From a virus (lineage: Duplodnaviria > Caudoviricetes), in the IMG/VR virus record IMGVR_UViG_3300038345_000087, positions 42,651 through 106,650 of that record: DNA of 64,000 nucleotides; one strand, given 5' to 3'. Both the position numbers and the translations under genes were made by a program. The notes beneath the pieces were generated by a model that ran no database searches, was not told where the DNA came from, and saw nothing but the letters and a program-made list of their open reading frames with translations. Position 1 is the stretch's first letter, and each line of letters begins with the position of its first letter. Of the stretch, positions 1,673 to 50,636 are shown piece after piece.

Positions 1673-4213
1673 ATGACTCAAGCCCGTCCAGCCGATTATT
1701 GGTTTTCCAATTCGGCTCTATATATCCAACTGAATGCCGCTGGCGACCCTAATTACATCCATGCCAACTGTTCGTCTGGCTCGGCTGTGTTGTGCTTTAT
1801 GCGCGGCATCAATGGTTTGGGCTATGATAACGGACACAACTATCGGCGATGGTCATTGATAGCGTCGCCGACGGTGTTCCACGATAATGCCGTTCGTTAT
1901 GTCTATATTGCCATCCCGAAAAGTGACGCAGTTGATGTGCCGGCACAAGTGGTGTTCCCTTCGGAGCTGATAGACCTATACGGCTGCAACGAAGGTGGTA
2001 CGCAAATTGGTTCAACGGATTACTTCTACATCTTCACTCAGGGCATCATTTCTCCTTCAGAAGTGAATGGTGTTCGCCAAAACCGCACATGGCAGCAGAA
2101 TGTGGATTGTGGCCAGTTGGCATCGGATGAAGCGATGGCGAATGGAGGCTCTGATTCATGGTGGGAATGGAACAGTGTCACGGACATGGTGAAGTTCCTG
2201 AAGGTGATTTCAGAGGCGACTTTCGATAAACTGACAGCTGCTTGGGCTTCCATCCGGCAACTTGTGTTGAACGGACACATTATCAATGGTGTTGCAGACC
2301 CAGAGACGGCTCAGGATGCCAACGCAGATGACAAGGTGGTGACTCCGGCATACGCTCAGACACAGTACCTATCTCGTACACATGATGACGCTGCGGCTGG
2401 TGATATCACCTTCAACAACTCCATCATGGTCAAAGGTGAGACCATACTGAAGCGTGCTGTCACAATCGGAGAATATGAGAAGGACATCCAAGTAGGTATA
2501 GGTTCACGCACGGGCGCAAAAATTCTTCCAGATGGTACAATCATCGCCCGTAATCTCGAATTATCCGAAAGCCTCCAAGTGCCGACTATCAAATACAACT
2601 CCATTGAGGTGTTGGCTGGCACACGATGGGATTCTGCCGGTAAGGGACGCATCAAGGAGATTATAGCAGTCGATGACAATGCTCATACATGTCAGTTTGT
2701 GCTCGATCTCAACGATGGTGAACCTGGTGAGTTTATTGTCAATGACATCCTTCGTGGCTTCTGGCATAACATGGACGGAACGAAGAATGCACAGAGTAAT
2801 TCTGATGACCGCCGTGGAAATATCACACGTGCGGGGTTCCAGTCCATCTATTGCCGTGTCATCGCCGTGGCGAATGTTGTTGAACGTACCACCGCTGACG
2901 CGACTATCTATATTGCCCAGGACAATCAGTACCTCGCTCAGGAGGGAGATAAGATATTGGCGAATGGACTTGTGACTGTGCAGATGCGTCAGTACAATAA
3001 TGGTTCCGATCCTGCAACGTGGTCGCCAACTCCTGAACAGTGGGCTGTCCTGTCTGTTTCCGGCTTCTTTGGCATCGACCATCCAGAACGTCAGAAGTTC
3101 TTTATCTACACCACGTCGTATATGGCTCGATTTGAGGGTGTCAACACGTGGGAATGGGAGGAACACTGCTTCATGGGAGGTTGGGGCGACTTGACTGGTT
3201 TTGCCATGATTCAGGAGGACGAACATGGTAATATCTCACGCAAGGAGTTTAATGGTGAAGGCTTCGTAACCAAGGATGCACATATATATGGTATTCTGGA
3301 ACAGTTCACCCGTTTCTCTGATCGCATCAACATACTTCTTTCCCGTCCAGATGGAACAATAGCGGATGGAGAGAATATGCGTGCTGACTTTGTTCTCGCA
3401 GACGTGGAGGGCAATATCATTTCGTCGGGCTACCGTCTTGACATCACCCGACAATCTGGTAATGCTCAGGCTGATGCTGCATGGAATACGGCGATGGCCA
3501 CTCGATATCCTGATGGCATACCATCGGCTCTGTATTTCCAGTTCTCCGACGTTCCCGAAAATGGTGCGGTTTATATTGTGGCGGCTTCTCGTCAGGTGCC
3601 AGATGGTACTTCTTATACAACCTATACGACATCGGCATCCTTTGTTCTTTCACGTGCCTACGCTCAGGAGGTTTTCATGGGTGAATGGAGTCCTTTGACC
3701 ACCTATACACGCAATGCTCGTACATATCCGACTGTGACCTATGGAGGTTGTAAGTGGTGGCTCGCTGTTTCAACATCCACAAACGACGAACCGCATCCGC
3801 TTTCTACGAAGTGGAAGATGGTTTATGGCATTAACGACCTCGAAATTCGCTTCTATAATGAGGCGGGCAATCGGATCACCTCTGCTGCTGCCTATCCTGG
3901 CTCTGTCAACATCTATCTGGAACCACGCCTTTTGTGTGGCCTCTATGACATCACGGAATATCTGACGGACTCCGATTGGTCGTGGGATCGTTATACGGGC
4001 AACTATGGCGAACAGACGGACACAAGAACTCCAGCTGATAAGCAGTCAGACCAGGGATGGCGCAATGCTCATTGGCCGTCACAACCAACCACACGCATTC
4101 TCCGTATCACCAACACTGACATGCCTCCTACATGGGGGTCTGGTGTAATGGTAAACTTCATCATAACTTGTAATTATGATGGTCTGATTATTTCTAATTC
4201 TGTCACCTTCTAA
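1673..4213 (+). CDS. Tail/baseplate structural protein
   Basis: 846 aa, beta-rich; YLSRTHDDAAAGDITF resembles a motif in Bacteroidales phage tail proteins; adjacent to tape measure. Confidence 0.6.
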   Translation: MTQARPADYWFSNSALYIQLNAAGDPNYIHANCSSGSAVLCFMRGINGLGYDNGHNYRRWSLIASPTVFHDNAVRYVYIAIPKSDAVDVPAQVVFPSELIDLYGCNEGGTQIGSTDYFYIFTQGIISPSEVNGVRQNRTWQQNVDCGQLASDEAMANGGSDSWWEWNSVTDMVKFLKVISEATFDKLTAAWASIRQLVLNGHIINGVADPETAQDANADDKVVTPAYAQTQYLSRTHDDAAAGDITFNNSIMVKGETILKRAVTIGEYEKDIQVGIGSRTGAKILPDGTIIARNLELSESLQVPTIKYNSIEVLAGTRWDSAGKGRIKEIIAVDDNAHTCQFVLDLNDGEPGEFIVNDILRGFWHNMDGTKNAQSNSDDRRGNITRAGFQSIYCRVIAVANVVERTTADATIYIAQDNQYLAQEGDKILANGLVTVQMRQYNNGSDPATWSPTPEQWAVLSVSGFFGIDHPERQKFFIYTTSYMARFEGVNTWEWEEHCFMGGWGDLTGFAMIQEDEHGNISRKEFNGEGFVTKDAHIYGILEQFTRFSDRINILLSRPDGTIADGENMRADFVLADVEGNIISSGYRLDITRQSGNAQADAAWNTAMATRYPDGIPSALYFQFSDVPENGAVYIVAASRQVPDGTSYTTYTTSASFVLSRAYAQEVFMGEWSPLTTYTRNARTYPTVTYGGCKWWLAVSTSTNDEPHPLSTKWKMVYGINDLEIRFYNEAGNRITSAAAYPGSVNIYLEPRLLCGLYDITEYLTDSDWSWDRYTGNYGEQTDTRTPADKQSDQGWRNAHWPSQPTTRILRITNTDMPPTWGSGVMVNFIITCNYDGLIISNSVTF

Positions 4214-4225
4214 CATCCCGATAAT

Positions 4226-7200
4226 ATGGATAAAAAGACCGAAGTTGTCATCACATGTAATTCCAAGCAACCTGTCGCCGCTGTGCGTGCGATGGAAACG
4301 GAATTGAAAAAACTGCAAGGCACTTACCAGCAGCTCGTACAGGCTGGCAAGGCTGGAACAGAACGTGCTAAGACGATGGCGCACGAGATCAAGGAACTCT
4401 CTATTGCTATCAAAGAGGGAAAGGCGAACATGGATAAAATCGTGTCCGTTACGAATAACCTTTCCCAATCTTCACTCTCTCAGTTGCAGCGTGCCCTTCG
4501 TCAGGTGAAGAAGGAAATGTCGCGTGTAAGTACGGATAGCCCGAAACTGGATGATTTGCGTATGAAGTATAAGGCTATCACGGACCAGATTAAGATTCTG
4601 AGTGGTGAAATGCTGAATATAAAGAAGCATATTGGCAACCTCTCTGGAGTGACGGATTCTTGGCTTCAGAAAGCCGTCCAGCAACAGAAAGCCCTGGTGC
4701 AACAGACACGTCAGGGAACATCTGAGTATAACAAGCAGATGAGCGTGCTGTCTCAGCTCTCGACTGAACAGGCACGTCGCGCTGTATCTACCATATCATC
4801 GGGTACTGCCAGTGCAGAACAACTACGTTCTGCCCGTGCTGCCCTCGTTTCTCATCGTGATATGATAGGCTCTGGTGGTATTCAAGTACAGGGCAATCAG
4901 GCAACGGAAATAGCTAAAATCAATGAGGAACTGAAGAAGGCTGATGCACAACTTGATACGATTGCTGGCAAGGAACAGAAATTGGTGTATTCAACACAGG
5001 AAATTGCAGATAAGGCGAATCAGATTATCATGGATCCCAAAAAGTTCACACCAAAGGAGATTGAAACGGCTCTGACTAATGTGAACAATAAATTGAAGGA
5101 AATTCCACTCAATGACCCGTTCCGAAAGCAGCTAAAACAGTCTGCAACACAGTTGAAGGCCATCCTCGATGGCGTGGATAAGGAACTTATCGACATCAAA
5201 AACTTGCTCCAACCGCAAAACCTCAAGAAAGCCTCTCTTGAACAGTTGAAGAATGCGGCTACTCAGTTGGAGAAGGAAATGGCGAAACTCAACCGTGATA
5301 CACAAGAGTATATCAATAAGAAAAGCCAACTGGCTACCATTCGCGGGGAGATAGATAAGGCTACGGGTTCTGTGCATAAACAATCGTCAGCATGGCAGAC
5401 TACACTTCGCAATATGTCGGCATACTTTGGTGCCTTCCAACTGTTCTCTATGGCTATCCAGAAGGTTCAGGCGTTTTTCCGTCTTAACCTCAAATTCTCG
5501 GATCAGTTGGCCGACATTCGTAAGGTGTCCGGCCTCGCTATGCAGGACATCAATAACCTTGCTAATTCTCTTGCAAAACTTGATACTCGCACTACCATTC
5601 AGGAACTTAACGAGATTGCTTATGCGGGTGCCAAATTGGGTATGGGTAAGTATGGCACCGCCGGATTGGAGCAATTCGTTCGTGCGGCTAACCAGGTGAA
5701 TGTGGCACTGAAAGAGGACTTGGGACAGGATGCACTCACGGCTCTCTCTAAGATTACGGAGGTCATGGGACTTATCCCGAAGATGGGCGTGGAGAAATCC
5801 ATGCTGGCTGTAGGTTCTGCCATGTTCCAGTTGTCTGCCACATCTACGGCGACATCGAACAATATCGTAGAGTTCTCAAAACGTCTCACGGGTATGGCTC
5901 GTACAGCCGGTATCACCACGGATCAGCTGCTTGCACTTGGTTCTGCTTCTGATGCTATGTACCTCATGCCCGAAGTCGCCAGTACTGCATTTAATAAACT
6001 TATCACCTCTCTTCAGACGAAGCACAACCTCATTGAACAAGAACTTCAGATTGAACCTGGTACCATCAACAACCTCTATTCTGCTGGCAAGACAATGGAT
6101 GCCATCGTTCTCATCCTCGAAAAGATGAAGGCGAAGGGTAACATGAATGCCCTGCAAGGTGTGTTCAAAGACCTCGGTTCTGAAGGTGCTCGTCTCGTCA
6201 ATGTCATGGTGACGATGAGCAAGAATGTAGATATGCTCAAAGATCACCTCGCTACATCTGAGGAAGCATTCTCAGAGGCGACGGCTGTCACTCAAGAGTA
6301 TGCTATACAGCAAGAAACGGCTAATGCTCTGATGGAGCGTGCTTCAAATATATGGGAAAAATCTTTTATCAATCCGAAGGGCGTAGATAATGTAAAGGAG
6401 TTAGCGCAACAATGGTATAACTTAACAAGGACTCTGACAGAATCTACATTTTTTATGGCACAGGCTAAGGCTGCTATTTGGCTTCTTATTAGTAGCATTA
6501 AAATTTTGATAGCATTACTTCCTGTGTTGATAGAGTTTTTCTTGTTTAGAGGAGCTTATGCTGCTATTATGGCCGTGGTTCGTGGTTTTGTCGCTCTTCG
6601 TACAGCAATTCAGGCGGCTACTGTGGCACAACATGGTTTGAATGCTGCTCAGAAGGCAAATCTATTTGGATTGATAGCGACCCTTATTGCTGCTGCTGTT
6701 AGTTGGTTTATCACGTATCGCGAAAAAGCAGAGGATGCAGCCGAAGCACAGCAAACCGTAAATCATGCTCTTGCTGATGCTCAAGCAGAGTATATGAAAA
6801 CTAAAAAGAAACTTGACGATTATGTTAAGGCTCTTGATGATGCTAATATATCTGAGGACACCCGTCAGAGATTGCTTCGTTCCTTTAATAAGGATTATAG
6901 GATTTATCTGGATAAGTTGGGTATAGAAGTCAATAGCGTAAATGATTTGAAAACGGCTTATGCCAAGTTGAATGATGAGATAAAGAAAAAGGCGTATTAC
7001 GAACTGCGTGAAAGAACGCTCCAATCATACGTTGGTGATGCACAGACGGAACAGGCTAACGCCATGATAGAGTTCCAGAAGGTGATGAAAAAGTATGGAC
7101 TGGATGTTAATGCTGATTATGTGGTGAACAATCAGCATTTGGGTATGGTTGGAGCCACGCGGAAACTTTTAGAAGAACATGCTGGCGCAAAGTTCGTTGG

Positions 7201-20007: not shown

Positions 20008-20514
20008 ATGGGTAAACAAAATCTTTCCATCATGGACCGCATCAAGACTTTCGAGGATGCTGTCAAGGAATTGGGTGAAAAGCACCCCGCCGTATGTGAG
20101 TACAATGCCATCGTTTCCGCCGGTCTTGAAACGTCTATGTCTCCTGACATTCTCGCATACTTCAAACTTCGTATCATCACCGCCGCACTCAATGATGGCT
20201 GGGAGCCTCAGTTTACGGTGGGTGAATATCGCTATTGGCCGTGGTTCTGGCTCTATACACAAGAGGAAGTGGATGCTATGACCGAAGCGGAGCGTTCTGA
20301 GCTGCTGTACGTCGGGGGTTACGCGTCTGACGGTGCGCTATGCGGTATTTCGTATGCGAACTCGATTTACGCTTTCTCGCTCTCGGACGCGGTCATCGGT
20401 GCTCGTCTGGCCTTCAAATCTCAGGAACTCGCGAAGTACGCTGGTCGCCAGTTCATAGAACTGTGGTCTGATTTTTCGTTCAAACCTGTTGACGGGCATG
20501 GCAAAGAAGAATAA
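20008..20514 (+). CDS. Remote DGR target protein 2 (168 aa)
   Basis: Contains VR2 in frame near the C-terminus, ending IGARLAF. Confidence 0.9.
   Translation: MGKQNLSIMDRIKTFEDAVKELGEKHPAVCEYNAIVSAGLETSMSPDILAYFKLRIITAALNDGWEPQFTVGEYRYWPWFWLYTQEEVDAMTEAERSELLYVGGYASDGALCGISYANSIYAFSLSDAVIGARLAFKSQELAKYAGRQFIELWSDFSFKPVDGHGKEE
20299..20409 (+). repeat. DGR variable repeat VR2
   Basis: 111 nt ungapped match to TR; 14 mismatches, all at TR adenines. Confidence 0.95.
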
Positions 20515-20758
20515 CAATAAGCCGCTTGACCAGAAGGCAATTCTCTTACGAGAAATATCAGAGGTTTTCAAACGCCATCAGGCAGATCCTAATATGTCTG
20601 TTGAGGTTTTGGGAGAAATGATGATGCACGTGTTCGTCGCGATGCAAACTTTCACTCCTGATGACATCACTCCTCATATCCTGGCCTTCTTTGACACCAT
20701 GAAGGATAAAGCCTCAGAGGTGTTATCACAAGTTCTGGCGGATAGAAACAAGAATTGA
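20498..20758 (+). CDS. Hypothetical protein
   Basis: Packed ORF. Confidence 0.55.
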   Translation: MAKKNNNKPLDQKAILLREISEVFKRHQADPNMSVEVLGEMMMHVFVAMQTFTPDDITPHILAFFDTMKDKASEVLSQVLADRNKN

Positions 20759-23015: not shown

Positions 23016-23465
23016 ATGAATTTAGATGAAATGGCCCATAAGTACATTGGGCTGCTGGAAAACAAATCTGGCGTATTTAATGAAGGCGACATGGAAACAT
23101 GTTACGTTACTGGAGCACAACAGGCTTCTGAATTACAGGAAGGACAATCTGGCAATTTCGGACAGGCTATTGGTTCACTGAAGTTCGGAAAACTTGTTCG
23201 TCGTGCCGGATGGAATGGAAAGGGAATGTTTCTCTTTATGCGTCCTTTCGATGTTTTGTCTGACAGCTTCATTGTTGATACTGTGAAGTCTCTTCCACAC
23301 AACTTTAAGGAATGGGTAAAGAACCATCCTAATGAGCGTAAGGAACGCTTTTTCGCTCAGTATATTTGTATGAAAGCTGCCGACGGTTCCGTTGTCAATG
23401 GATGGCTTGCTTCTCAGACGGACATGCTGGCTGACGATTGGGAACTGGTAAACCCTGAAGAATAG
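23016..23465 (+). CDS. DUF2829 / Tad2-like anti-defence protein
   Basis: NFGQAIGSLKFGKLVRRAGWNGKGMFL...GWLASQTDMLADDWELV. Confidence 0.8.
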   Translation: MNLDEMAHKYIGLLENKSGVFNEGDMETCYVTGAQQASELQEGQSGNFGQAIGSLKFGKLVRRAGWNGKGMFLFMRPFDVLSDSFIVDTVKSLPHNFKEWVKNHPNERKERFFAQYICMKAADGSVVNGWLASQTDMLADDWELVNPEE

Positions 23466-23678: not shown

Positions 23679-23969
23679 ATGGCTGGCCCTAAATGCGACA
23701 TATTTGAGTATATCAGAGATACCGTTCATATCTACGATAAGATGACAGAGACCAACAAGAATCTCCGTTATCTTTTCAAAGACTATGAAGAGAAGGTTGT
23801 TCCCGTCAAAGAGTGTATTCGTAAAGTCATGGCTGCTCAGAAGAAAGATGTCCTTCCTGCTACCATTGACTTGATGACAGCGGCAATGGAAAAAGATAAT
23901 GCAGTTCATGCCATGTGGTTTATGTCAGCTGCCGTAGATATCTGTAATGAAAAGCAAATCAAACAATGA
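23679..23969 (+). CDS. Hypothetical protein
   Basis: Packed ORF. Confidence 0.55.
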   Translation: MAGPKCDIFEYIRDTVHIYDKMTETNKNLRYLFKDYEEKVVPVKECIRKVMAAQKKDVLPATIDLMTAAMEKDNAVHAMWFMSAAVDICNEKQIKQ

Positions 23970-24019
23970 AAAAATTACATCGAATAATCCTATTCCGTGG
24001 CTACAATGCCAAAAACAAA
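23963..24019 (+). repeat. 57-bp direct repeat, left copy
   Basis: Identical to 26120-26176; encodes the first 18 codons of the YopX gene. Confidence 0.95.
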
Positions 24020-24154
24020 CCGCACCTCGTACATGTCGGCTCAGGCTTGGAGCGCGGCTGTCCCTTCCTCGTCGCTGATGATACAAACAAACATATCGTC
24101 ACCTGTAACTTTATGCCAGACTTCTTCCCTGGCCTCGTTTATGACTCAAAATAA
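23966..24154 (+). pseudogene. Chimeric ORF: YopX N-terminus fused to unrelated sequence
   Basis: MKKLHRIILFRGYNAKNK is identical to the start of ORF 26123, then diverges. Confidence 0.6.
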
Positions 24155-26119: not shown

Positions 26120-26176
26120 ACAATGAAAAAATTACATCGAATAATCCTATTCCGTGGCTACAATGCCAAAAACAAA
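26120..26176 (+). repeat. 57-bp direct repeat, right copy
   Basis: Identical to 23963-24019. Confidence 0.95.
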
Positions 26177-26575
26177 ACGTGGCTTCATGGCTACTATATC
26201 CAGAATCGGCTTGGTCATTTCGTTACTCCCAATGAGTTTGCACGAGGTAAAGATTGGGATGATTACGAAGTAGATCCTGATACTGTCGGACAGTTTACTG
26301 GTACATACGATAAAACGGGCGCGATGGTTTATGAAGGTGACATCGTGGATGCCTGGAGTGCTGGCTCACATATTAGTCATGGAATTGTAAAATTTGCTTC
26401 TCCTCGTTTCTTCATTCTCGTCAATCATTCAGAGAAGGGGACACCTATTGACTGTTGGAGTCTTGCACCAAGCCAGTTTGATGGTAACGATGAGCATTTG
26501 AAGGTAGTTGGCAATATCCATGATAACCCAGAACTCGTAAAAGCATATTTGGAATATCAAAAGCATCATGTATGA
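26123..26575 (+). CDS. YopX-family protein
   Basis: ILFRG, VDPDTVGQFTG..DK.G..VYEGDIV, VVGNIHDNPEL. Confidence 0.85.
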   Translation: MKKLHRIILFRGYNAKNKTWLHGYYIQNRLGHFVTPNEFARGKDWDDYEVDPDTVGQFTGTYDKTGAMVYEGDIVDAWSAGSHISHGIVKFASPRFFILVNHSEKGTPIDCWSLAPSQFDGNDEHLKVVGNIHDNPELVKAYLEYQKHHV

Positions 26576-28252: not shown

Positions 28253-28326
28253 TATATATATAATAAGGTATAAGGTATAGCTCATAGTTTTTGGTTATTG
28301 ATTGATTAGTCTTTAAGGTTAGTGCG

Positions 28327-38384: not shown

Positions 38385-39635
38385 ATGAAAAAAGCGAAAA
38401 CTTCTCTTGCATCTGGTGAAGGCATAGCCAAAGTGTTGTGCTTGACCAGTCTTGACAACCTCTATGAGGCTACGCCGGAAGAGGTGAACAACAGCGCGAT
38501 TCCATCCACTGTTGTAGGTGCGCTCACTTCCAGTCTCACGCTGGAACAGAACTCTAATCCTGCCATCACGGTCAAAAACCGTGGAGCGGCTGAACTCTAT
38601 CAGGGTCAAATGGGCGGATATGCCTTCTTCATCAAGGATGGCAAAGTCTATGCGGCAAAACTGAATGGAGGTGATTGGACGAAGTTTGCCGATGGCACTC
38701 CTTTCACATCTGCTCTGGAGCAAGTGTGTGAAACAATGGTACATGTGCCTGACTGCCATTTCAAAGGCGAAGGTAAGACTCTCCACTTCGGCGGTCTCGT
38801 GCCTATCGATGGAGGCCATGTGTTTGAGTCTCCTCATTGGGTAGGTGCATACAAGATCTGGCTTGATGCCAACAACAAGGCACATTCGCGCCCCGACAAG
38901 ACTCCTGCTCACTCTAAGACGATGAGCAACTTCTGGACTTATGCACAGAACCTCGGTACTGAGTTTGGTCTGGCTAACTACCAGTTCCATTGTCTCATCA
39001 ATGCGCTCTTCCAGGCACGCTATGGCAATCTCAATTCTCAGAGCGTCATCGGTGCTGGCTTCCAGACTTCTTCGTGGGAGGCTGCTCGTGATGTGCCAAT
39101 GGGTCTTACAAAGGCTCTTGGTGATGGATCTGGTAGAGTGTTCTACACAGATGGTACTATCGGCGACCAGTACCCCGTTAAACTCTTCGGCTTCGAGGAT
39201 CTTTGGGGCAAACTCTGGGAGTTCCGTCCTGGCATCCGTTTCTACATGGATGACACCGTGCGTAAGGCTGTTGTCTATTCAGGCAACAAAGTCAGCAACA
39301 CGGCTACGGGTCGTGAGTTTGTGTGCAGCCTTACTACTCAGAGCGGTAGCGGCACTTATGCCAAGTCAATGGAACTTGGTGAGTGGTGGGACATGATAGC
39401 TCAGTCTGTCAATGGCTCTGACTCTACGTACTATTGCGATGGCTTCTGGTACGCTACGACTGGAGAGCTGCTGGGCGTCGGGGGTCGCGCGGCTTACGGT
39501 GCGCTATGCGGGCTTTCGTCTGCGGGCTCGACTGGCGCTTTCTCGCGCTCGGCCTCGGACATCGGTGCTCGTCTGGCCTTCTACGGTGAGCCGGAAATCG
39601 TTAGCGGTGCGCAGCTGGTGGCCTTGACCGCCTGA
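38385..39635 (+). CDS. DGR target protein 1, probable C-type-lectin-fold receptor-binding protein
   Basis: VKLFGFEDLWGKLWEF motif; C-terminal VR1 ending IGARLAF; adjacent to TR and RT. Confidence 0.9.
   Translation: MKKAKTSLASGEGIAKVLCLTSLDNLYEATPEEVNNSAIPSTVVGALTSSLTLEQNSNPAITVKNRGAAELYQGQMGGYAFFIKDGKVYAAKLNGGDWTKFADGTPFTSALEQVCETMVHVPDCHFKGEGKTLHFGGLVPIDGGHVFESPHWVGAYKIWLDANNKAHSRPDKTPAHSKTMSNFWTYAQNLGTEFGLANYQFHCLINALFQARYGNLNSQSVIGAGFQTSSWEAARDVPMGLTKALGDGSGRVFYTDGTIGDQYPVKLFGFEDLWGKLWEFRPGIRFYMDDTVRKAVVYSGNKVSNTATGREFVCSLTTQSGSGTYAKSMELGEWWDMIAQSVNGSDSTYYCDGFWYATTGELLGVGGRAAYGALCGLSSAGSTGAFSRSASDIGARLAFYGEPEIVSGAQLVALTA
39465..39575 (+). repeat. DGR variable repeat VR1
   Basis: 111 nt ungapped match to TR; 22 mismatches, 21 at TR adenines and one T>G. 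Confidence 0.95.
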
Positions 39636-39982: not shown

Positions 39983-40093
39983 GAGCTGCTGAACGTCGGG
40001 GGTAACGCGAATAACGGTGCGCAATGCGGTATTTCGTATGCGAACTCGAATAACGCTTTCTCGAACTCGAACACGAACATCGGTGCTCGTCTG
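39983..40093 (+). ncRNA. DGR template repeat (TR)
   Basis: Intergenic; 27 adenines, 10 AAY codons in the VR frame; followed by aaattt where both VRs have gccttc. Confidence 0.95.
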
Positions 40094-40381
40094 AAATTTT
40101 ACACTAATTATCCACTGTTTATCTCTACCGGCCTCGTGTAGGTCAACGGGGATGAGCACACGATTGAGCCTGACTCGATGGAAGGATATAGGGTGTGCAA
40201 AGCGGTTTTCCCGCTTTGACCTCCTATCCTGACAGAGCGAACACATAAAGGCGTAGGGTGTTATGAGTCCCCTCGCGCAAGTAAGCAAGGCAGTTGTACG
40301 CCTATACCGAAAGCCCGTGAGCCGAGAAGTGTAGAAGGCATAACCGTTTCCGTAATCAATTTGTCTCGTAAAAGAAGAACG

Positions 40382-41728
40382 ATGGCTGAAGAGTTGGCAT
40401 ACAAAAGAAAGGCAAGCCGTCGCGGTAAGAACCGCAAGGTGCGCATCGCCCAAGTCTATGACATGGGCAACCTACGTATGGCAGACCGTGAGGCACGAAA
40501 AGGTAAGGATGCACATAAGGGTGTTCGCATCTTTGACCGTAATCCAGAAAAGAACCTTCAGACCTTGCAGGACCAACTTCGCACAGCCACATACCATACT
40601 TCGCCAGGACATGAATGTGTGCGCCATTGTCCCTGTGGAAAAGACAGACTGCTGCATAAGCTGCCGTACTATCCAGACCACGTAGAGAACCATGCGCTCA
40701 TGCAGATCATCATGCCGATAATGATGCGGGCATATTACTATGACTCGTCGGCATCTATAAAAGGTAAAGGTATGCACTTCGCAGCACAACGCACGGAGCG
40801 TTATATCGATGCACATAAGTATGCCGGTCGTATCTATTATGCCAAACTGGACTTCGTGAAGTTCTATCACAACATCAATCAGAAGAAGATTAACCATGTC
40901 CTGAGTCGAAAGTTCGGCGATAAAGGCATACGTTATCTGATTTGGGAGATTGTTTCAGCATGTGAGGAGGGATTAGGCATAGGATTGTTCCCGATTCAAC
41001 CGATGGCGAATTTCTACACTTGTGCGCTATGCCGTCTGTTGATGGCTCTCTTCGACGTATGGGTAGAGATTTATTGTGATGATATGGTCATCATGGGTCT
41101 TGATAAGAAAGAAGTATGGCGTGCCGTGAATTTCGTCAGGAAGTATGCTGAAGAGGTGATGGAACAGCCGTTGCATGACAATATCGGTGTGCAGATTATC
41201 GACGAACATCACGGACTCGATTTTGTCGGGTATCAGTTCTTCTTTAATCATACGTTGCTCAGAAAACGTATGAAAGCCAAGTTCAAACAGAAGATGCACC
41301 GTCTGAAAGACCCTATGCGTCGCTATCAGGCTGCTACTTCATATAAGGGATGGCTCATGCACTGCAACGGATTCAACCTCTGGTGTAAGGTGATGCACAT
41401 GAAATCGTTTAAGGATCTCCAAGTTCCGAAGTTTGAGAAGAAGGATGCCGATGGTAAGCGTATGCTTGAAGGTACGAAGGTGTCAGCCTCCATGCTCTGC
41501 GGACGTGAAGTTGTCTTTACGGATGTGGAGTTGGGCGTGAAGTCTAAGTATAAGAAGAACGCGGCCATCGTACAGGTGGAGGATAACGGACAAAAGTTCA
41601 AGTTCTTTACGTGTAACCAGAAACTCATTCAGACGCTCGAATATATCAATACCCATGACGGCTTCCCGTTCACGGGCACCATCGTTCGTGCCAACAACGC
41701 GGGATTGCCTGACTACGAGATTACATAA
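40382..41728 (+). CDS. DGR reverse transcriptase with C-terminal extension
   Basis: NL..A...ARKGK, KDR, KLDFVKFY, GIG...Q..AN.Y, YCDD, GLDFVGY, LLRK; about 110 extra C-terminal residues; start may be TTG 40361. Confidence 0.95.
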   Translation: MAEELAYKRKASRRGKNRKVRIAQVYDMGNLRMADREARKGKDAHKGVRIFDRNPEKNLQTLQDQLRTATYHTSPGHECVRHCPCGKDRLLHKLPYYPDHVENHALMQIIMPIMMRAYYYDSSASIKGKGMHFAAQRTERYIDAHKYAGRIYYAKLDFVKFYHNINQKKINHVLSRKFGDKGIRYLIWEIVSACEEGLGIGLFPIQPMANFYTCALCRLLMALFDVWVEIYCDDMVIMGLDKKEVWRAVNFVRKYAEEVMEQPLHDNIGVQIIDEHHGLDFVGYQFFFNHTLLRKRMKAKFKQKMHRLKDPMRRYQAATSYKGWLMHCNGFNLWCKVMHMKSFKDLQVPKFEKKDADGKRMLEGTKVSASMLCGREVVFTDVELGVKSKYKKNAAIVQVEDNGQKFKFFTCNQKLIQTLEYINTHDGFPFTGTIVRANNAGLPDYEIT

Positions 41729-44273: not shown

Positions 44274-47200
44274 ATGCAGAATCTTATATCACAGACTTTC
44301 GCAGTAACAGCTCAGAAGCCTACTGTATCGGTGGATCACATTGATAATTACTACATCACCGAGGCTTCTGGCATCATGCCGTCGGTCAATGACTCACGAT
44401 GGACGCTGGTGCCTGATGGTCAGCAAGTGCCTGTACCTACAGCATCGGCTCCATATCTGTGGCATAAATATATCACCTACCTTACGGATGGCACCGCACT
44501 GGATCCTATCGTGGAGTTTGCGGGGTCTCTCGGACAGAATGGTTTTGACTATGACCTCGTGCCGTCTAATTCGGCCATCATCAAAGATACTTCCGATAAC
44601 CTCACTCCTGCAAATGTAACTTGCTCGCTCATCAAACGTAATGCCGATGGTTCTGCTGAGACACAATCCACCGTACCTTCTGGCTACTCGGTGGTGGTAT
44701 ATCGCGACAATACCCCTTCTTCTTATACGCTTGGTGCCAATGTTTCAACGTCGGGTATTACTTCGGTTATCACTTTTGTGCTGAAGTATGGTTCTATTGA
44801 GGTGGAACGCCACGATATTCGTGTCATCGCAGAAGGTGCAGAAGGTCTTACTGGTCGTGGCATTCAGTCGCAAGATACAAGATTCAAGGCGACGGCAACC
44901 AATTCGCAGCCAGCAACACCCACCAATGATACGACGTGGAACACATGGTCTGCTCTTTCTTCTGCCGGCTACTCTCAGGACACGCCTTATCTCTGGAAGT
45001 GCATAAGAACGGTGTACCGCAATGGTAATGGCACAACTGATACAGAATACCTCGTGGAAGGCCCTACTGTATGGGGACAGAATGGTGCTGATGCTATATT
45101 TATTGATCTCGACAATGAAATGGATGCCATACCATGTGACAGCACGGGTAAGGTTACATCGAGAACGGTGCTCACTTCTTATGCCCGTTTATATCGAGGC
45201 TCTGCTATCATTAACACCGACCTTACGGCTCCCGTCGCAGCTAATTGTAAACTTGGATCTGTAACGCCAACGGTCACTTCTCAGGCTGATGGCTCCTACA
45301 AATTGGAATGGGTCTTTGCTGTAAATACACAGTTAAGTGTTGACCGTATCACGGCCAATGTCGCTATTGGTTATGGAGGAAAATCTTATGCAGCACTCTT
45401 CACAGCCAATGTCGTGAAGTCTGGTTCTCCTGGCGTTTCTCCTGCTATCTACCAACTCTTGCTCTCTCAAAACGAGGCTTCTTTTGCCCGTAACAGCAGC
45501 AATCAACTTACGCCCGCCTCTATCTCTATCCGTTGTGGTTATACCAAAAACTACAATGGCACCATCGATAAGCATGTAGGAAGTCAGGCTTCAGATCTCC
45601 AAAACATTGACTCGAAGTATAACATCTTCTACCGTCCTATCGCTTCTAATGGAAATCCTGGCTCATGGGCATGGATGAAAGATTTATCTTCAGCAAACTT
45701 TTATTTGGTCATCCCAAACTCAACTACCAATATCGCCTATGAGTTTGTCTTGAGTACGGCTTCTGGCACTGCATCGATTGAAGAATCCAACATTTTTGAC
45801 CGCGAGACACTACCCATCAACAAGGATGGCCTCAATGGTGCCCCTGGAGAGTCTGCTCTGATTATCGACCTAACCAATGAGAACGATGCTTTCGGTACGA
45901 AGGCTGACGGAAAAATCACCGCGTCTGTGTCTCGTGAAACAAGAGCCTCGATGTTCTATGGCATTACGCCATTGACGGCAACATATCAATCCACGAAAAC
46001 CTATGAGGATGGCACGAATTGTGGAAACGAGGTAGATGTGGTGATAGATTCTGAAACGGGTCTCGTTACCGTGACGATGAATAACACCAACTTTGTCTAT
46101 AACAAGACCATCTTCATCGATATAACAGGAACCGCAAGCGGTTACACGGATAAGCCTAAGACGGCTCGGTTCACCATACAACCACAAGCAGCCGGAAGTG
46201 ATGGTAAGACTCCAATCATTTACCAACTGATGCCGTCGCCGTCTCAACTTTCGTTTGCTCGAAATTCTGATGGTACGCTGAACATGGCTAATAATGTGAT
46301 AACAGGGTATGTCAAAAAGATAGAGGATGAAGATACAACGATTCTATCCTCTCTCTCTGGTTATCGCATTTATTACGGCTATGGTAATCCTACAACACCT
46401 TCCAATTATATCAGTGTTGGTGGCACGATTACCGTTTCTGCATCCAATGCGGCTTCTTATGCTTCATTGGTGTTGGAACTCTGGAAGATGAATGGCACGA
46501 CGAAGCAGAAACGACTTGACCGCGAGACTATCCCAATCAATAAAGAAGGCCAGAAGGGTGATCCAGGTGATCCAGGCGATGATGGTATAACACCGTTTAT
46601 TATCGATGTCGATAATGAAATGACCTCTGTGCCTGTCTCTCAGGAGGGTGCGGTAATTGCAGCAACTACTTTGGAGTTTAATCTTGCTGCATATTATGGT
46701 CAAACTAATGTCATCGATGATTGTACGGTTGCATGTGTTTCTGGATCTGATCAACAGGTTACAGTGGACGTGACAACAAATAAGGCAAAACCTAAGATTG
46801 TCATCGCGCAAGGTTTTACTCCTCCGACGATGATTGAATTGTGCTTCCGCGTTACACATGCCAACTATGGCTCGCGTGATGCTATTTTCTCTATTGCTTT
46901 CGTGAAAGCGGGCGGTCAAGGTTTGAATGCTATTCTCTATGAATTGCTGCCCTCTCTTTCGCAGATTGCTGTGGGACGTACAGATAATGGTGCTTATAAT
47001 CCCGCTAATGTGGCTCTGACATGCGGATATACTAAGACAGACGGACCTAATACTACGTCTGTGGCAGATTGCACCTCTTCTTTTGACGGATATGAAATAT
47101 ATTTCCGTCGCTTTTCGCGTTCGTCTAACGCATGGCAAACAACATATTACAAATATCGTACTTATAAGTCTCATTTGGCTTCTATTGTTGTTGCTACATA

Positions 47201-50200
47201 TTCCAAGGTTCAATTTATCATTTGCACGAATACATCTGGAACTATTACCAATACTAATCTTGATGATGTCAATGTTACTGGTCTCATCGATCGTGAGACC
47301 GTTCCCATTGTGGCAGATGGGCAAAAAGGAGATAAAGGCGATAATGCGTTCATTCTTGACCTCGACAACGAAATGGCGGCTGTTCCCGTCAATCAGTCTG
47401 GTGCTGTAGAAGCGCAGAAACAGCTTACTTTCGGTCTTAATGCGTATTATGGCACAACAGCTGTGCTTAATGATTGTACTGTTACCGTAGATGGTACTGT
47501 TCCATCTGGATTTTCTGTAAATCTTGATGATAAATTTAACCCTGTTGTTACAATCAGTGCAAATACTACACCGGCTGAGATAACGGAGCTTACTTTCAAG
47601 GCCGTTCATGCTACTTATGGAACTCGTTACGCGACTTTCTCCGTATGTGCGGTAAAGGCTGGTGGAAATGGTGCTGACGCTGAAATATATCAGTTGAAGC
47701 CGTACTATACTGCTATTCAGTTTGCTCGTGATGGTAATGGGGACTTGACAGGTGGCCCTTATACGCTAACGTGTCAAATCCAGAAAACAAAAGGAACGTC
47801 GGTCAATAATTATAACTCACTGTCTGGCTATTATATCTACTATGATTGGGATGGTGCAGCATCACCGGCTACTTCTCTTCCTATAGCGGGTCGTTCGGTT
47901 AGTACGTCAGATGCTTCAAGCCATACGAACATTGTACTCGAATTGTGGAAGGGTGCTCGAGATGTATCAGGATCCGTCCGACTTGACCGCGAGACTATCC
48001 CCATCTTGAAGGATGGCTCGCGTGGTGGTACGGGACCTGATGGAACAGGTATCGCGTCTATTACCTTTCATCGTATGTTCACGATGTCGTTGGATGGAGA
48101 ACCGTTACCAACGGATTCGGGTTGGATAGCATCTACATCTTCGTCTTATCCTTCTGAAAGCGGGCTGTCTGAGACGAATCGCTACCTCTGGCAGAAAAAG
48201 ACTACGACATACACGAAGAATGATGTCGCTACAACTTATGAAGTTTCCCTGTTGGCTCAATTCAATTCGGGACTTAAAGAGAATCTGCTGGAAGATACGT
48301 CGTTCTTTTCTGAGGGACAAATGGAGGCGTGGAATGTGAAGAATGGAACGATTGGCATTGGTACGGTAAGTGGGCACAATAGTTTCGGACTTACACCTGA
48401 TTTCACTGTCGAATTATCCCCGATGCTTCGCCAGATAGTCCACGATGGATCTACGCTTAAAAAACTGAAAGCTAATACTTGGTACACGCTTTCGTTCTAT
48501 GCAGCCATGCAAGCGAAGCAAAATCTGTTCTCTGGAACGGATTACAACGGAAATGGCAATACAGATTACGCTATGTTCCGCGAATCTTATCGTGAAGTAT
48601 GGCTTGGGGCTAATCAATCGATGGATGTTGAAGTGAAGGCTTACTGTGCTTCTTCCAATGTTTTTCTTCGTTACTTCGCATGGTCGTATGATACAGGGGA
48701 TAGCACAAACTGGAAGAACACAACAAAAGTGGACTTTACCGAGACTTCGGAAACGACAAAGACGATGCGTGTTACCAACACGGCTTCTTATGGCAGATTG
48801 TTCCGTATGCGTGGTTATGTCTATCTCAATGGGACCTTCACCATCAATGGTCAACAGGTGGTGAGCAATCCTACGGTTGCTTCGCCCTTGCTGAACAACT
48901 CCACTAACAATCCGAATGGGTACAACACCACAACTTATCGGTGTTACATTAAAACCATCAATGTTAATCGTGGATGCCGACTGTCAACTTATCTCTATCG
49001 TGCAGATCACGGCGCAGCTGTGCAACATTCATCATCGGCCCCTTGGTATGTGGATGGCAAAAAGTACACGGCTGCTGATCAAAGCGCAAACACCAATCTT
49101 CAATCTGGCACGCTTGTGGCATTTTCCGATGATGGTTGCGTCCATTGGCAACTGTCACCTGGCACTGTCCGACATACCGTAACATTTAAGACACCTTCTT
49201 CTCTTTCTTCATCTACGGAGTATGCTGTCCTCTTCCGAATGAATCAGTATTCTCACTATGGATGGGTGTCGATGCCAAAACTGGAAGAGAACACGATGGC
49301 TACGGAGTGGATTGAGCATACCAGCGATCGTTTCGCGGATGACATGCAGCATATCTTTGTGGGTGATTGGGTTGCAAGTACACAAGGCACCACTTCTACA
49401 TATTATCATTTTGATAACGGTGTTCGCCATGTGGTGCTTGCGAAAGAAAGTGCATCTTCTACGAAAAAAGTGTACTTCCGTATGAAGCAGCGTACAACGG
49501 CTGAAGGTTATTGCTCTACGACGCAACCTTATTCCGACACAAACCATTGGGAAAAAGCGTCTAATCTCCGTTTTATCGCTGCTGAGTTTATTCTTGCAGA
49601 CCAGGCTTTGCTCAAATTCGCACAGACGAATCGCATTCTGGTTTATAATTCTGCGGGCAACGTCGCCGCTGGAATGGGTGGTGCTGAAGGTGGATCAAAC
49701 GACTACCCTCTTTGGGTTGGTGCCGACTATGAGAATCGTGCGACTGCCGCATTTCGTGTGTCTCTGCTTGGTAAATTATATGCGACTGGTGCGGAGATCT
49801 CTGGTAAAATCACGGCAACACAAGGTACTATCGGAGGTTTTACTATTGGTACTGATAGCATTGTCTCTACTGGAAATGCTGTCCTTCGTATTGGAAACGA
49901 TAACTTCAAAACACAGTTTGGTATAACGGAATCTTCTAAAACTGTTCAAATGAATGGAAGTGAACAAGGTGTTGTTTTGGTGAACTATACTTTCAGTTAT
50001 AAGGAGAATAATCGTTTTACATTAAGGAAAACCACAACAAGTCATTATAACTGGACGAATTTTGGAGCAGCCAATGTTATAGATTTGGATTTCCATTCTG
50101 GTACGCATTCAGGTAGTGCATCTAATAATAGATACGGCTTCCAGTATGCAATGATAGGTAACGGGCACGTGATAATGAATGGAATAGTTGAAGGTGCTGC

Positions 50201-50636
50201 TTATGATAGGGTTGCTAATTGGAGTGCTGCAAATCAGATTCAGATGGTACAGATGCCGTTGTATAGTAACCGTATTGTGGTAAGCACAACCTATGACAAT
50301 GATATTCTTATCCTTCCTGATAAGTATTCTATGTTTTCCGCGTTAGGATGTGGGTTTATTAAATCTGCTACGTCTCAGTATTTTACCTTCAGACTTGACA
50401 TCATAAATACGGGTACAAAGAATGTATATGTTGCAGGATATAATTCTTTGAAAGTTGGCACATCAAGCAATTATACTCAACCATATATGAATACAAACCT
50501 CCCTTATATGAGGTATCGTAATAATTCATATTCTGGTGAAAAGGATATTTACGTTAGACCTAAAAATATACTTTCTTTGATGTTGGTCTATGACAATGGA
50601 ACTTATTACGCATTTATCATTAACGATCCAAATTAA
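44274..50636 (+). CDS. Very large tail fibre / host-specificity protein (2120 aa)
   Basis: PYLW motifs, four internal repeats, PKLEE...ATEW motif, GKITATQGTIGGFTIG fibre motif. Confidence 0.8.
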   Translation: MQNLISQTFAVTAQKPTVSVDHIDNYYITEASGIMPSVNDSRWTLVPDGQQVPVPTASAPYLWHKYITYLTDGTALDPIVEFAGSLGQNGFDYDLVPSNSAIIKDTSDNLTPANVTCSLIKRNADGSAETQSTVPSGYSVVVYRDNTPSSYTLGANVSTSGITSVITFVLKYGSIEVERHDIRVIAEGAEGLTGRGIQSQDTRFKATATNSQPATPTNDTTWNTWSALSSAGYSQDTPYLWKCIRTVYRNGNGTTDTEYLVEGPTVWGQNGADAIFIDLDNEMDAIPCDSTGKVTSRTVLTSYARLYRGSAIINTDLTAPVAANCKLGSVTPTVTSQADGSYKLEWVFAVNTQLSVDRITANVAIGYGGKSYAALFTANVVKSGSPGVSPAIYQLLLSQNEASFARNSSNQLTPASISIRCGYTKNYNGTIDKHVGSQASDLQNIDSKYNIFYRPIASNGNPGSWAWMKDLSSANFYLVIPNSTTNIAYEFVLSTASGTASIEESNIFDRETLPINKDGLNGAPGESALIIDLTNENDAFGTKADGKITASVSRETRASMFYGITPLTATYQSTKTYEDGTNCGNEVDVVIDSETGLVTVTMNNTNFVYNKTIFIDITGTASGYTDKPKTARFTIQPQAAGSDGKTPIIYQLMPSPSQLSFARNSDGTLNMANNVITGYVKKIEDEDTTILSSLSGYRIYYGYGNPTTPSNYISVGGTITVSASNAASYASLVLELWKMNGTTKQKRLDRETIPINKEGQKGDPGDPGDDGITPFIIDVDNEMTSVPVSQEGAVIAATTLEFNLAAYYGQTNVIDDCTVACVSGSDQQVTVDVTTNKAKPKIVIAQGFTPPTMIELCFRVTHANYGSRDAIFSIAFVKAGGQGLNAILYELLPSLSQIAVGRTDNGAYNPANVALTCGYTKTDGPNTTSVADCTSSFDGYEIYFRRFSRSSNAWQTTYYKYRTYKSHLASIVVATYSKVQFIICTNTSGTITNTNLDDVNVTGLIDRETVPIVADGQKGDKGDNAFILDLDNEMAAVPVNQSGAVEAQKQLTFGLNAYYGTTAVLNDCTVTVDGTVPSGFSVNLDDKFNPVVTISANTTPAEITELTFKAVHATYGTRYATFSVCAVKAGGNGADAEIYQLKPYYTAIQFARDGNGDLTGGPYTLTCQIQKTKGTSVNNYNSLSGYYIYYDWDGAASPATSLPIAGRSVSTSDASSHTNIVLELWKGARDVSGSVRLDRETIPILKDGSRGGTGPDGTGIASITFHRMFTMSLDGEPLPTDSGWIASTSSSYPSESGLSETNRYLWQKKTTTYTKNDVATTYEVSLLAQFNSGLKENLLEDTSFFSEGQMEAWNVKNGTIGIGTVSGHNSFGLTPDFTVELSPMLRQIVHDGSTLKKLKANTWYTLSFYAAMQAKQNLFSGTDYNGNGNTDYAMFRESYREVWLGANQSMDVEVKAYCASSNVFLRYFAWSYDTGDSTNWKNTTKVDFTETSETTKTMRVTNTASYGRLFRMRGYVYLNGTFTINGQQVVSNPTVASPLLNNSTNNPNGYNTTTYRCYIKTINVNRGCRLSTYLYRADHGAAVQHSSSAPWYVDGKKYTAADQSANTNLQSGTLVAFSDDGCVHWQLSPGTVRHTVTFKTPSSLSSSTEYAVLFRMNQYSHYGWVSMPKLEENTMATEWIEHTSDRFADDMQHIFVGDWVASTQGTTSTYYHFDNGVRHVVLAKESASSTKKVYFRMKQRTTAEGYCSTTQPYSDTNHWEKASNLRFIAAEFILADQALLKFAQTNRILVYNSAGNVAAGMGGAEGGSNDYPLWVGADYENRATAAFRVSLLGKLYATGAEISGKITATQGTIGGFTIGTDSIVSTGNAVLRIGNDNFKTQFGITESSKTVQMNGSEQGVVLVNYTFSYKENNRFTLRKTTTSHYNWTNFGAANVIDLDFHSGTHSGSASNNRYGFQYAMIGNGHVIMNGIVEGAAYDRVANWSAANQIQMVQMPLYSNRIVVSTTYDNDILILPDKYSMFSALGCGFIKSATSQYFTFRLDIINTGTKNVYVAGYNSLKVGTSSNYTQPYMNTNLPYMRYRNNSYSGEKDIYVRPKNILSLMLVYDNGTYYAFIINDPN

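Follow-up and report, generated by a model that had tools for sequence, protein, structure and literature searches.

A remote DGR variable repeat in a small PHROG 11581 protein of a large gut phage, with a probable role inside the infected cell

The gene at positions 20008–20514 (plus strand) of the analysed DNA, coding for a 168-aa protein of the PHROG 11581 family, is almost certainly a genuine DGR target: its 3' part carries a remote variable repeat (VR2, 20299–20409, plus strand), identified both by repeat comparison and by population hypervariation at the codons that contain template adenines. As judged from variation among relatives, this remote target is active in nature, and we consider it fairly probable that it encodes a hypervariable intracellular binding protein engaged in phage–host or phage–phage conflict. 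The window, i.e., the whole stretch that was analysed, comprises the final 64 kb of a 106,650-bp IMG/VR virus record rated complete by CheckV; all genes in it lie on the plus strand. DGRs are usually read as host-range devices acting on tail fibres. Several unrelated lineages of gut phages also keep a very large family of small, soluble, apparently non-virion proteins hypervariable, which suggests that targeted hypermutation has a second use, probably within infected cells. With this window, the family gains a clean example with clear natural variation, as well as a sister clade whose target carries a fused Tad2-like domain.

The repeat finder returned one three-copy family (20299–20415, 39465–39581, and 39983–40099), and a search of the whole 106,650-bp record yielded only these three copies, with an E-value of 3.6e-35 for the VR2 match. 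With one exception in VR1, the mismatches of VR1 and VR2 fall at adenines of the copy at 39983, hence this copy is the template (TR, 39983–40099, plus strand). In an ungapped comparison with TR positions 39983–40093, VR2 shows 14 mismatches over 111 nt, all 14 at TR adenines; the coordinates and counts given in the earlier note are correct. The substitutions relative to TR are A to T (8), A to G (4), and A to C (2). As TR has 27 adenines in these 111 nt, the chance that all 14 mismatches fall at A is, by simple arithmetic, (27/111)^14, or about 2.5e-9. In the same type of comparison VR1 (39465–39575) shows 22 mismatches, 21 of them at TR adenines. VR2 lies on the same strand as TR; the distance between them is 19.6 kb, as had been claimed.

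VR2 corresponds to codons 98–134 of the 168-aa ORF, that is, to its C-terminal part, and the ORF is intact. The 27 adenines of TR are found mainly in AAC and AAT codons, and A-to-N changes in the template yield no stop codon; the theoretical repertoire of VR2 is about 3e15 proteins, with a stop codon impossible from template changes. The repeats and their adenine specificity bear out the claim that a single TR supplies both a tail-region protein and a small, soluble accessory one.

Past position 111 of the alignment, VR1 and VR2 both continue with GGCCTTC, and TR with GAAATTT. The GCCTTC flank of VR2 (20410–20415, plus strand), which the earlier note had described as common to VR1 and VR2, is indeed found in both by repeat comparison, TR having AAATTT instead. 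This difference is presumed to be the 3' element that separates targets from template, with an IMH-like role. At positions 40079–40164 of the window, the 3' end of TR and a stretch lying some 65 nt further downstream are able to pair (ATCGGTGCTC and GAGCACACGAT; z -2.26 versus shuffles), and this pairing may be part of the DGR RNA structure between TR and RT.

Natural variation at VR2 was assessed in 12 same-length relatives of the protein (86–92% identity). Two relatives with an indel or frameshift inside the VR were set aside, and the counts refer to the ten in-frame relatives plus the window protein (11 sequences), these being assembled relatives and not reads within one sample. Outside the VR, the 11 sequences are about 99% identical, with 15 of 129 positions varying. 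Within the VR, 16 of the 17 codons with a TR adenine vary, with a mean of 4.9 different residues each, versus 2 of the 22 codons without a TR adenine; adenine-specific variation in populations, on which the earlier note had made its reading depend, is therefore present. Nearly all VR residue cells (404 of 407) are reachable from the window TR by A-to-N changes alone. The reading frame is kept through the VR in 10 of the 12 close relatives. An IMG/VR contig that is 97% identical (L025) shows the same adenine pattern at the DNA level in a gapped comparison; relative to the window, it has a 1-nt deletion in a G-run inside the VR.

Codon 135 (AAA in TR, GCC in VR2) is invariant across the 11 natural variants; therefore, the 3' limit of information transfer is placed at 20409/20410, and the invariance fits GGCCTTC as the target mark. 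As judged from sequence comparison, the variation among relatives supports a VR2 target that is active in nature, and indicates diversification in the lineage rather than in this particular genome copy.

The local target of the DGR is a 416-aa tail-type protein (38385–39635, plus strand; PHROG match to phrog_5302), with VR1 and its flank, which extends to 39581, at the end of the ORF. Next comes TR, inside a non-coding gap, and then the gene of the DGR reverse transcriptase (40361–41728, plus strand, 455 aa), which starts 262 nt downstream of TR; no ORF of at least 60 aa is found on the plus strand between VR1 and RT. Homologues of the VR1 protein (120 among the matches listed) are all near-identical VR variants with 80–95% identity. 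The VR1 protein gives 1466 clusters at 90% identity; among the matches listed, most are singletons that are about 81% identical. Hypervariable VRs appear to inflate such cluster counts, which matters when the number of clusters is taken as the size of a family. Downstream of the DGR, at 44274–50636, the window has a 2120-aa ORF with several internal direct repeats (families D8, D9, and D11), which may be a giant modular fibre.

The RT matches phrog_1423 (E 7e-67) and the PADLOC RT model, and weakly the Pfam RVT_1 model. Its core spans approximately residues 1–345, and the C-terminal extension (approximately 348–442) matches phrog_19665 (E 8.5e-8). The catalytic motif YCDD is present. Motif 4, which in DGR RTs usually has the form [LIV]GxxxSQ, reads IGLFPIQ, with Q kept and S not. 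The phrog_19665 part is a separate, overlapping ORF in LoVEphage (MW660583, 47609–48109) and in a group of phages with genomes of 60–70 kb (5461–5862 in locus L063); programmed frameshifts have been suggested to join such a split RT (Benler et al., 2021; PMC8008677), and the single 455-aa ORF observed here bears on that suggestion. No match to the Avd family PF05635 was found anywhere in the 106.6-kb record, and no hairpin or cruciform 3' of VR1 or VR2 beats shuffled sequence (z about -0.3).

The remote target protein is acidic (pI 4.69). With a 19-residue window its maximum Kyte–Doolittle value is only 1.0, hence it has no transmembrane or signal-like segment, in agreement with the earlier note. 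Its match to phrog_11581 (E 5.8e-53; residues 3–159) covers nearly the full length; the PHROG has no annotated function. The family is very large, with 1199 clusters when grouped at 90% identity and, at E<=1e-10, 623 representatives when grouped at 50%. A typical member is about 200 aa long, with some 35 extra N-terminal residues that are absent from the window protein.

Two AlphaFold (AF2) runs, with 40 and 131 sequences, yielded models with pLDDT 77–80 and pTM 0.71–0.75. The models agree on a confident helical scaffold, with helices in residues 8–62 and 139–157, and in both of them the VR (approximately residues 101–128) is below pLDDT 50, i.e., unmodelled; for that reason, even the VR as a "binding surface" is something we infer. 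The model has no match in the PDB by Foldseek, the wide VIA-align search gives unrelated helical matches only (best Z 4.1), and a profile search of PDB sequences with the target protein returned nothing; only uncharacterised phage proteins are matched in BFVD, and only hypothetical viral clusters in the ESM Atlas. Pfam, NCBIfam, and PADLOC searches with the target protein gave no match. A CLec domain was assigned by HHpred to the Quimbyvirus homologue (Benler et al., 2021; PMC8008677); our Pfam scan of 40 PHROG 11581 members found no lectin-type match. As a secondary, tentative reading, the VR may be displayed on a helical, non-lectin scaffold.

The target gene lies in a non-structural block of nucleotide-metabolism and accessory genes. 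It is surrounded by primase-like, ThyX-like, radical SAM, DUF4406 (nucleoside-deoxyribosyltransferase-like), YopX, and Tad2-like genes, so that the earlier placement among accessory rather than structural genes is correct; the first recognised head gene starts at 28322, approximately 8 kb downstream. An 89-aa gene without a family match (20489–20758, plus strand, from the ORF list) overlaps the target gene on its downstream side, and in the sister clade a similar ORF of 88 aa comes after the target gene (4482–4748 in locus L029), the likeness being judged by eye, unaligned. A megablast search of the region against GenBank phages gave no match. The phage is apparently a large, virulent gut phage of the Bacteroides type. 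A tyrosine integrase was not found in the genome; this speaks for the target acting during lytic infection.

In the promoter and terminator scan, sigma-70-type promoter sites occur at chance level only; the Bacteroidetes-type promoter motif has 5 matches versus 1.85 expected, none of them adjoining the target gene. Several repeat families were also observed. Family D5, with the motif TTTGTTCCG...TATCTTTGC, occurs in the window at 445–490, 10034, 36174, 44214, and 51641, a short way ahead of long ORFs, and probably represents a class of phage promoters of the Bacteroidetes type; no copy is near the VR2 gene. Families D2 and D7 make up an element of about 40 nt, GCCACNGTG followed by a short hairpin, which is scattered over the genome; the repeat finder places its copies in the window at 363–402, 10580, 17708, 56352, 57270, 61233, 61655, 61955, and 62063. 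Family D10 is a 60-nt direct repeat, 98% identical between 23963–24022 and 26120–26179, at the starts of two small genes 2.2 kb apart.

The Tad2-like gene that had been reported 2.5 kb away is found at 23016–23465 (plus strand; PF11195, E 3.4e-22), downstream of the target gene. It is the sole Tad2-like match in the genome, stands alone, and is context rather than part of the DGR. In the sister clade, the target itself is a 299-aa ORF in which an acidic linker connects an N-terminal Tad2-like domain (PF11195, 33 bits versus a cut-off of 25) to the VR-bearing PHROG 11581 domain; this ORF carries the remote VR of that clade, with adenine-only mismatches. The fusion is seen in seven IMG/VR loci (L029, positions 3605–4504, from record G002; L026–L028; L030; L031; and L033), and in two further database clusters, one of which has 36 members. 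The window protein starts at the PHROG 11581 domain, and PF11195 has no match in its 168 aa.

The link to Tad2 (Thoeris anti-defence 2, DUF2829/PF11195) thus consists of a Tad2-like gene 2.5 kb off and a Tad2-like N-terminal domain in the sister orthologue, a likeness known from sequence, with the difference that the window protein has no such domain. Given the fusion in sister phages, the comparison suggests a link stronger than mere proximity, which is still guilt by association. Our literature search found no publication linking DGR targets with Tad2. The Tad2-like fusion is the only functional handle on the PHROG 11581 family so far.

Targets of the same family are found in several other phages. 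In the sister clade (records G002 and G003), RT is 88% and the target 60% identical to those of the window, with the same remote layout and adenine-only mismatches; each of the two RT matches there (loci L105 and L104, respectively) contains one in-frame TAA. LoVEphage-type phages of Bacteroides and Phocaeicola have a homologue that is 45–47% identical and lies among recombination, methyltransferase, and replication genes; in LoVEphage and Versailles, the C-terminal segment of the homologue matches two copies adjoining RT, with mismatches to the A-rich copy at adenines. The group with genomes of 60–70 kb has two tandem family genes, each with a VR, located directly upstream of TR and RT and between HTH and exonuclease genes; the VR mismatches in this group fall at adenines in 10 of 10 and 12 of 13 cases. 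The cassette order VR, VR, TR, RT is observed at positions 3320–5862 of locus L063 (IMG/VR record G025, 70 kb) and in about 20 similar records, and the DGR cassette there appears to serve only the two tandem PHROG 11581 genes.

No RT, even by the general Pfam RT model, is found in 12 of the 31 family-bearing records rated at least 90% complete, hence ongoing diversification is not needed for the family to work. The RT-less loci of the 60–70-kb group that were examined keep both family genes and have no TR copy. Taken together, these comparisons point to PHROG 11581 as a recurrent, dedicated DGR target that also exists without ongoing diversification.

If, by analogy with Bordetella phage BPP-1, the DGR of the window homes in the usual manner, TR would be transcribed, and RT would copy it into cDNA with misincorporation at adenines. 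The cDNA would then replace the homologous segment of either VR1, beside the cassette, or VR2, 19.6 kb off, the two targets being distinguished from the template by their 3' mark (GGCCTTC versus GAAATTT in TR). Rewriting in VR2 would cover 15–16 codons (residues 98–130) and would leave the invariant scaffold untouched. The acidic, soluble 168-aa product would most likely be a hypervariable binder inside the infected cell; we infer such a soluble, non-virion binder from the position of the gene, the behaviour of the family, and one recurrent fusion. Its presumed cytoplasmic location, binding function, and part in counter-defence are conditional to the same degree. As sister phages have this domain joined to a Tad2-like one, the most specific guess is that the target may be a specificity module of counter-defence.

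A wider proposal, which we regard as tentative and rather doubtful, is that PHROG 11581 is a modular, DGR-programmable intracellular recognition domain for counter-defence, used alone, in tandem with its own DGR, or fused to Tad2. If this is true, DGRs diversify anti-defence proteins besides receptor-binding proteins.

Three other readings of the gene have to be weighed. The small protein might be a virion component, e.g., a minor tail or decoration protein, in which VR2 diversifies binding to the host or to mucus as VR1 does: phage DGRs canonically target receptor-binding proteins (PMC8144416), the homologue in Versailles carries the annotation "tail protein," and the VR segment has a match at the end of the tail family phrog_5302. 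However, the similarity to tail proteins is confined to the VR imposed by TR (residues 94–152), as is, by BLASTP, the similarity to the VR1 protein, and the sister-clade copies carry a fused Tad2-like domain. The position of the genes also argues against a structural role, with the window copy surrounded by nucleotide-metabolism and accessory genes, some 8 kb ahead of the first head gene, and the copies in LoVEphage, Versailles, and the 60–70-kb group among recombination, replication, and HTH genes; a virion protein is therefore very unlikely. Somewhat less improbable, but still unlikely, is a role in defence or superinfection exclusion instead of counter-defence, with the hypervariable protein sensing rival phages or mobile elements. 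Bacteria are known to have putative antigen sensors diversified by DGRs (cited in PMC12629997), the LoVEphage-type relatives are temperate, and the neighbourhood has been called "defense-related" (Benler et al., 2021; PMC8008677). Yet no effector domain is seen in the window protein, PADLOC defence models do not match it, no tyrosine integrase is found in the phage genome, and the sole recognisable fused partner in relatives is Tad2-like, a member of an anti-defence family.

The sequence of the VR is dictated by a TR that also serves VR1, and twelve near-complete related genomes retain family genes without any RT; both facts would agree with VR2 as a fossil or accidental homing site without selected function, in an ORF that merely tolerates the insert. 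On the other hand, the scaffold is strongly conserved and variation is confined to adenine-coded codons, the frame through the VR survives in most of the close relatives (10 of 12), DGRs with different TRs target the family in four or more divergent lineages of phages, and in one lineage the whole cassette appears to serve this family only. These observations largely refute a fossil site, which we regard as extremely improbable.

The comparison with known systems concerns Bordetella phage BPP-1 (Mtd, TR, Brt, and Avd), on the one hand, and distal DGR targets of gut phages, on the other. In BPP-1, the DGR acts on one neighbouring virion protein, whose C-type lectin fold has been solved, and it depends on Avd and on a hairpin downstream. 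Common to BPP-1 and the window are adenine-specific transfer from TR to VR, a VR near the 3' end of the target, template codons rich in AAY, and a VR whose 3' sequence is not that of TR. Unlike in BPP-1, the VR2 target of the window is remote and non-structural, and neither Avd nor a hairpin after either VR was detected, so that the details of homing may differ from the BPP-1 model.

Related gut phages had already been reported, in 2021 and 2025, to carry a second DGR target of this distal, non-structural kind, and this protein family as well; the novelty claimed in the earlier note was overstated. Of the two VRs of Quimbyvirus, one lies in a non-structural protein whose gene is surrounded by nuclease, methyltransferase, and tRNA-ligase genes, a neighbourhood termed "defense-related," and a role in phage–host conflict was proposed (Benler et al., 2021; PMC8008677); the LoVEphage homologues are such targets. 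Later, four prophage species were described in which a second, distal VR lies close to counter-defence genes (Dahlman et al., 2025; PMC12629997). In the study of Roux et al. (2021), remote targets were explicitly beyond detection.

The distal target of Quimbyvirus and LoVEphage belongs to the same family as that of the window (46% identity to the LoVEphage homologue, with a match to PHROG 11581 for both), and there, too, one TR serves a tail-region target and a remote small non-structural target, with adenine-only mismatches. The RT of LoVEphage likewise has the phrog_19665 module, although it is split across frames, whereas the RT of the window is a single 455-aa ORF. Further differences are that VR2 of the window is on the TR strand and that its protein is without the N-terminal extension of about 35 aa typical of the family; the neighbours are nucleotide-metabolism and Tad2-like genes here, and methyltransferase and tRNA-ligase genes in the reports on Quimbyvirus and LoVEphage. 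The genome of LoVEphage is 71 kb long, compared with 106.6 kb for the window phage, in which no integrase was found. What is new here is thus another member of the distal-target kind, in a different, larger, and apparently virulent phage.
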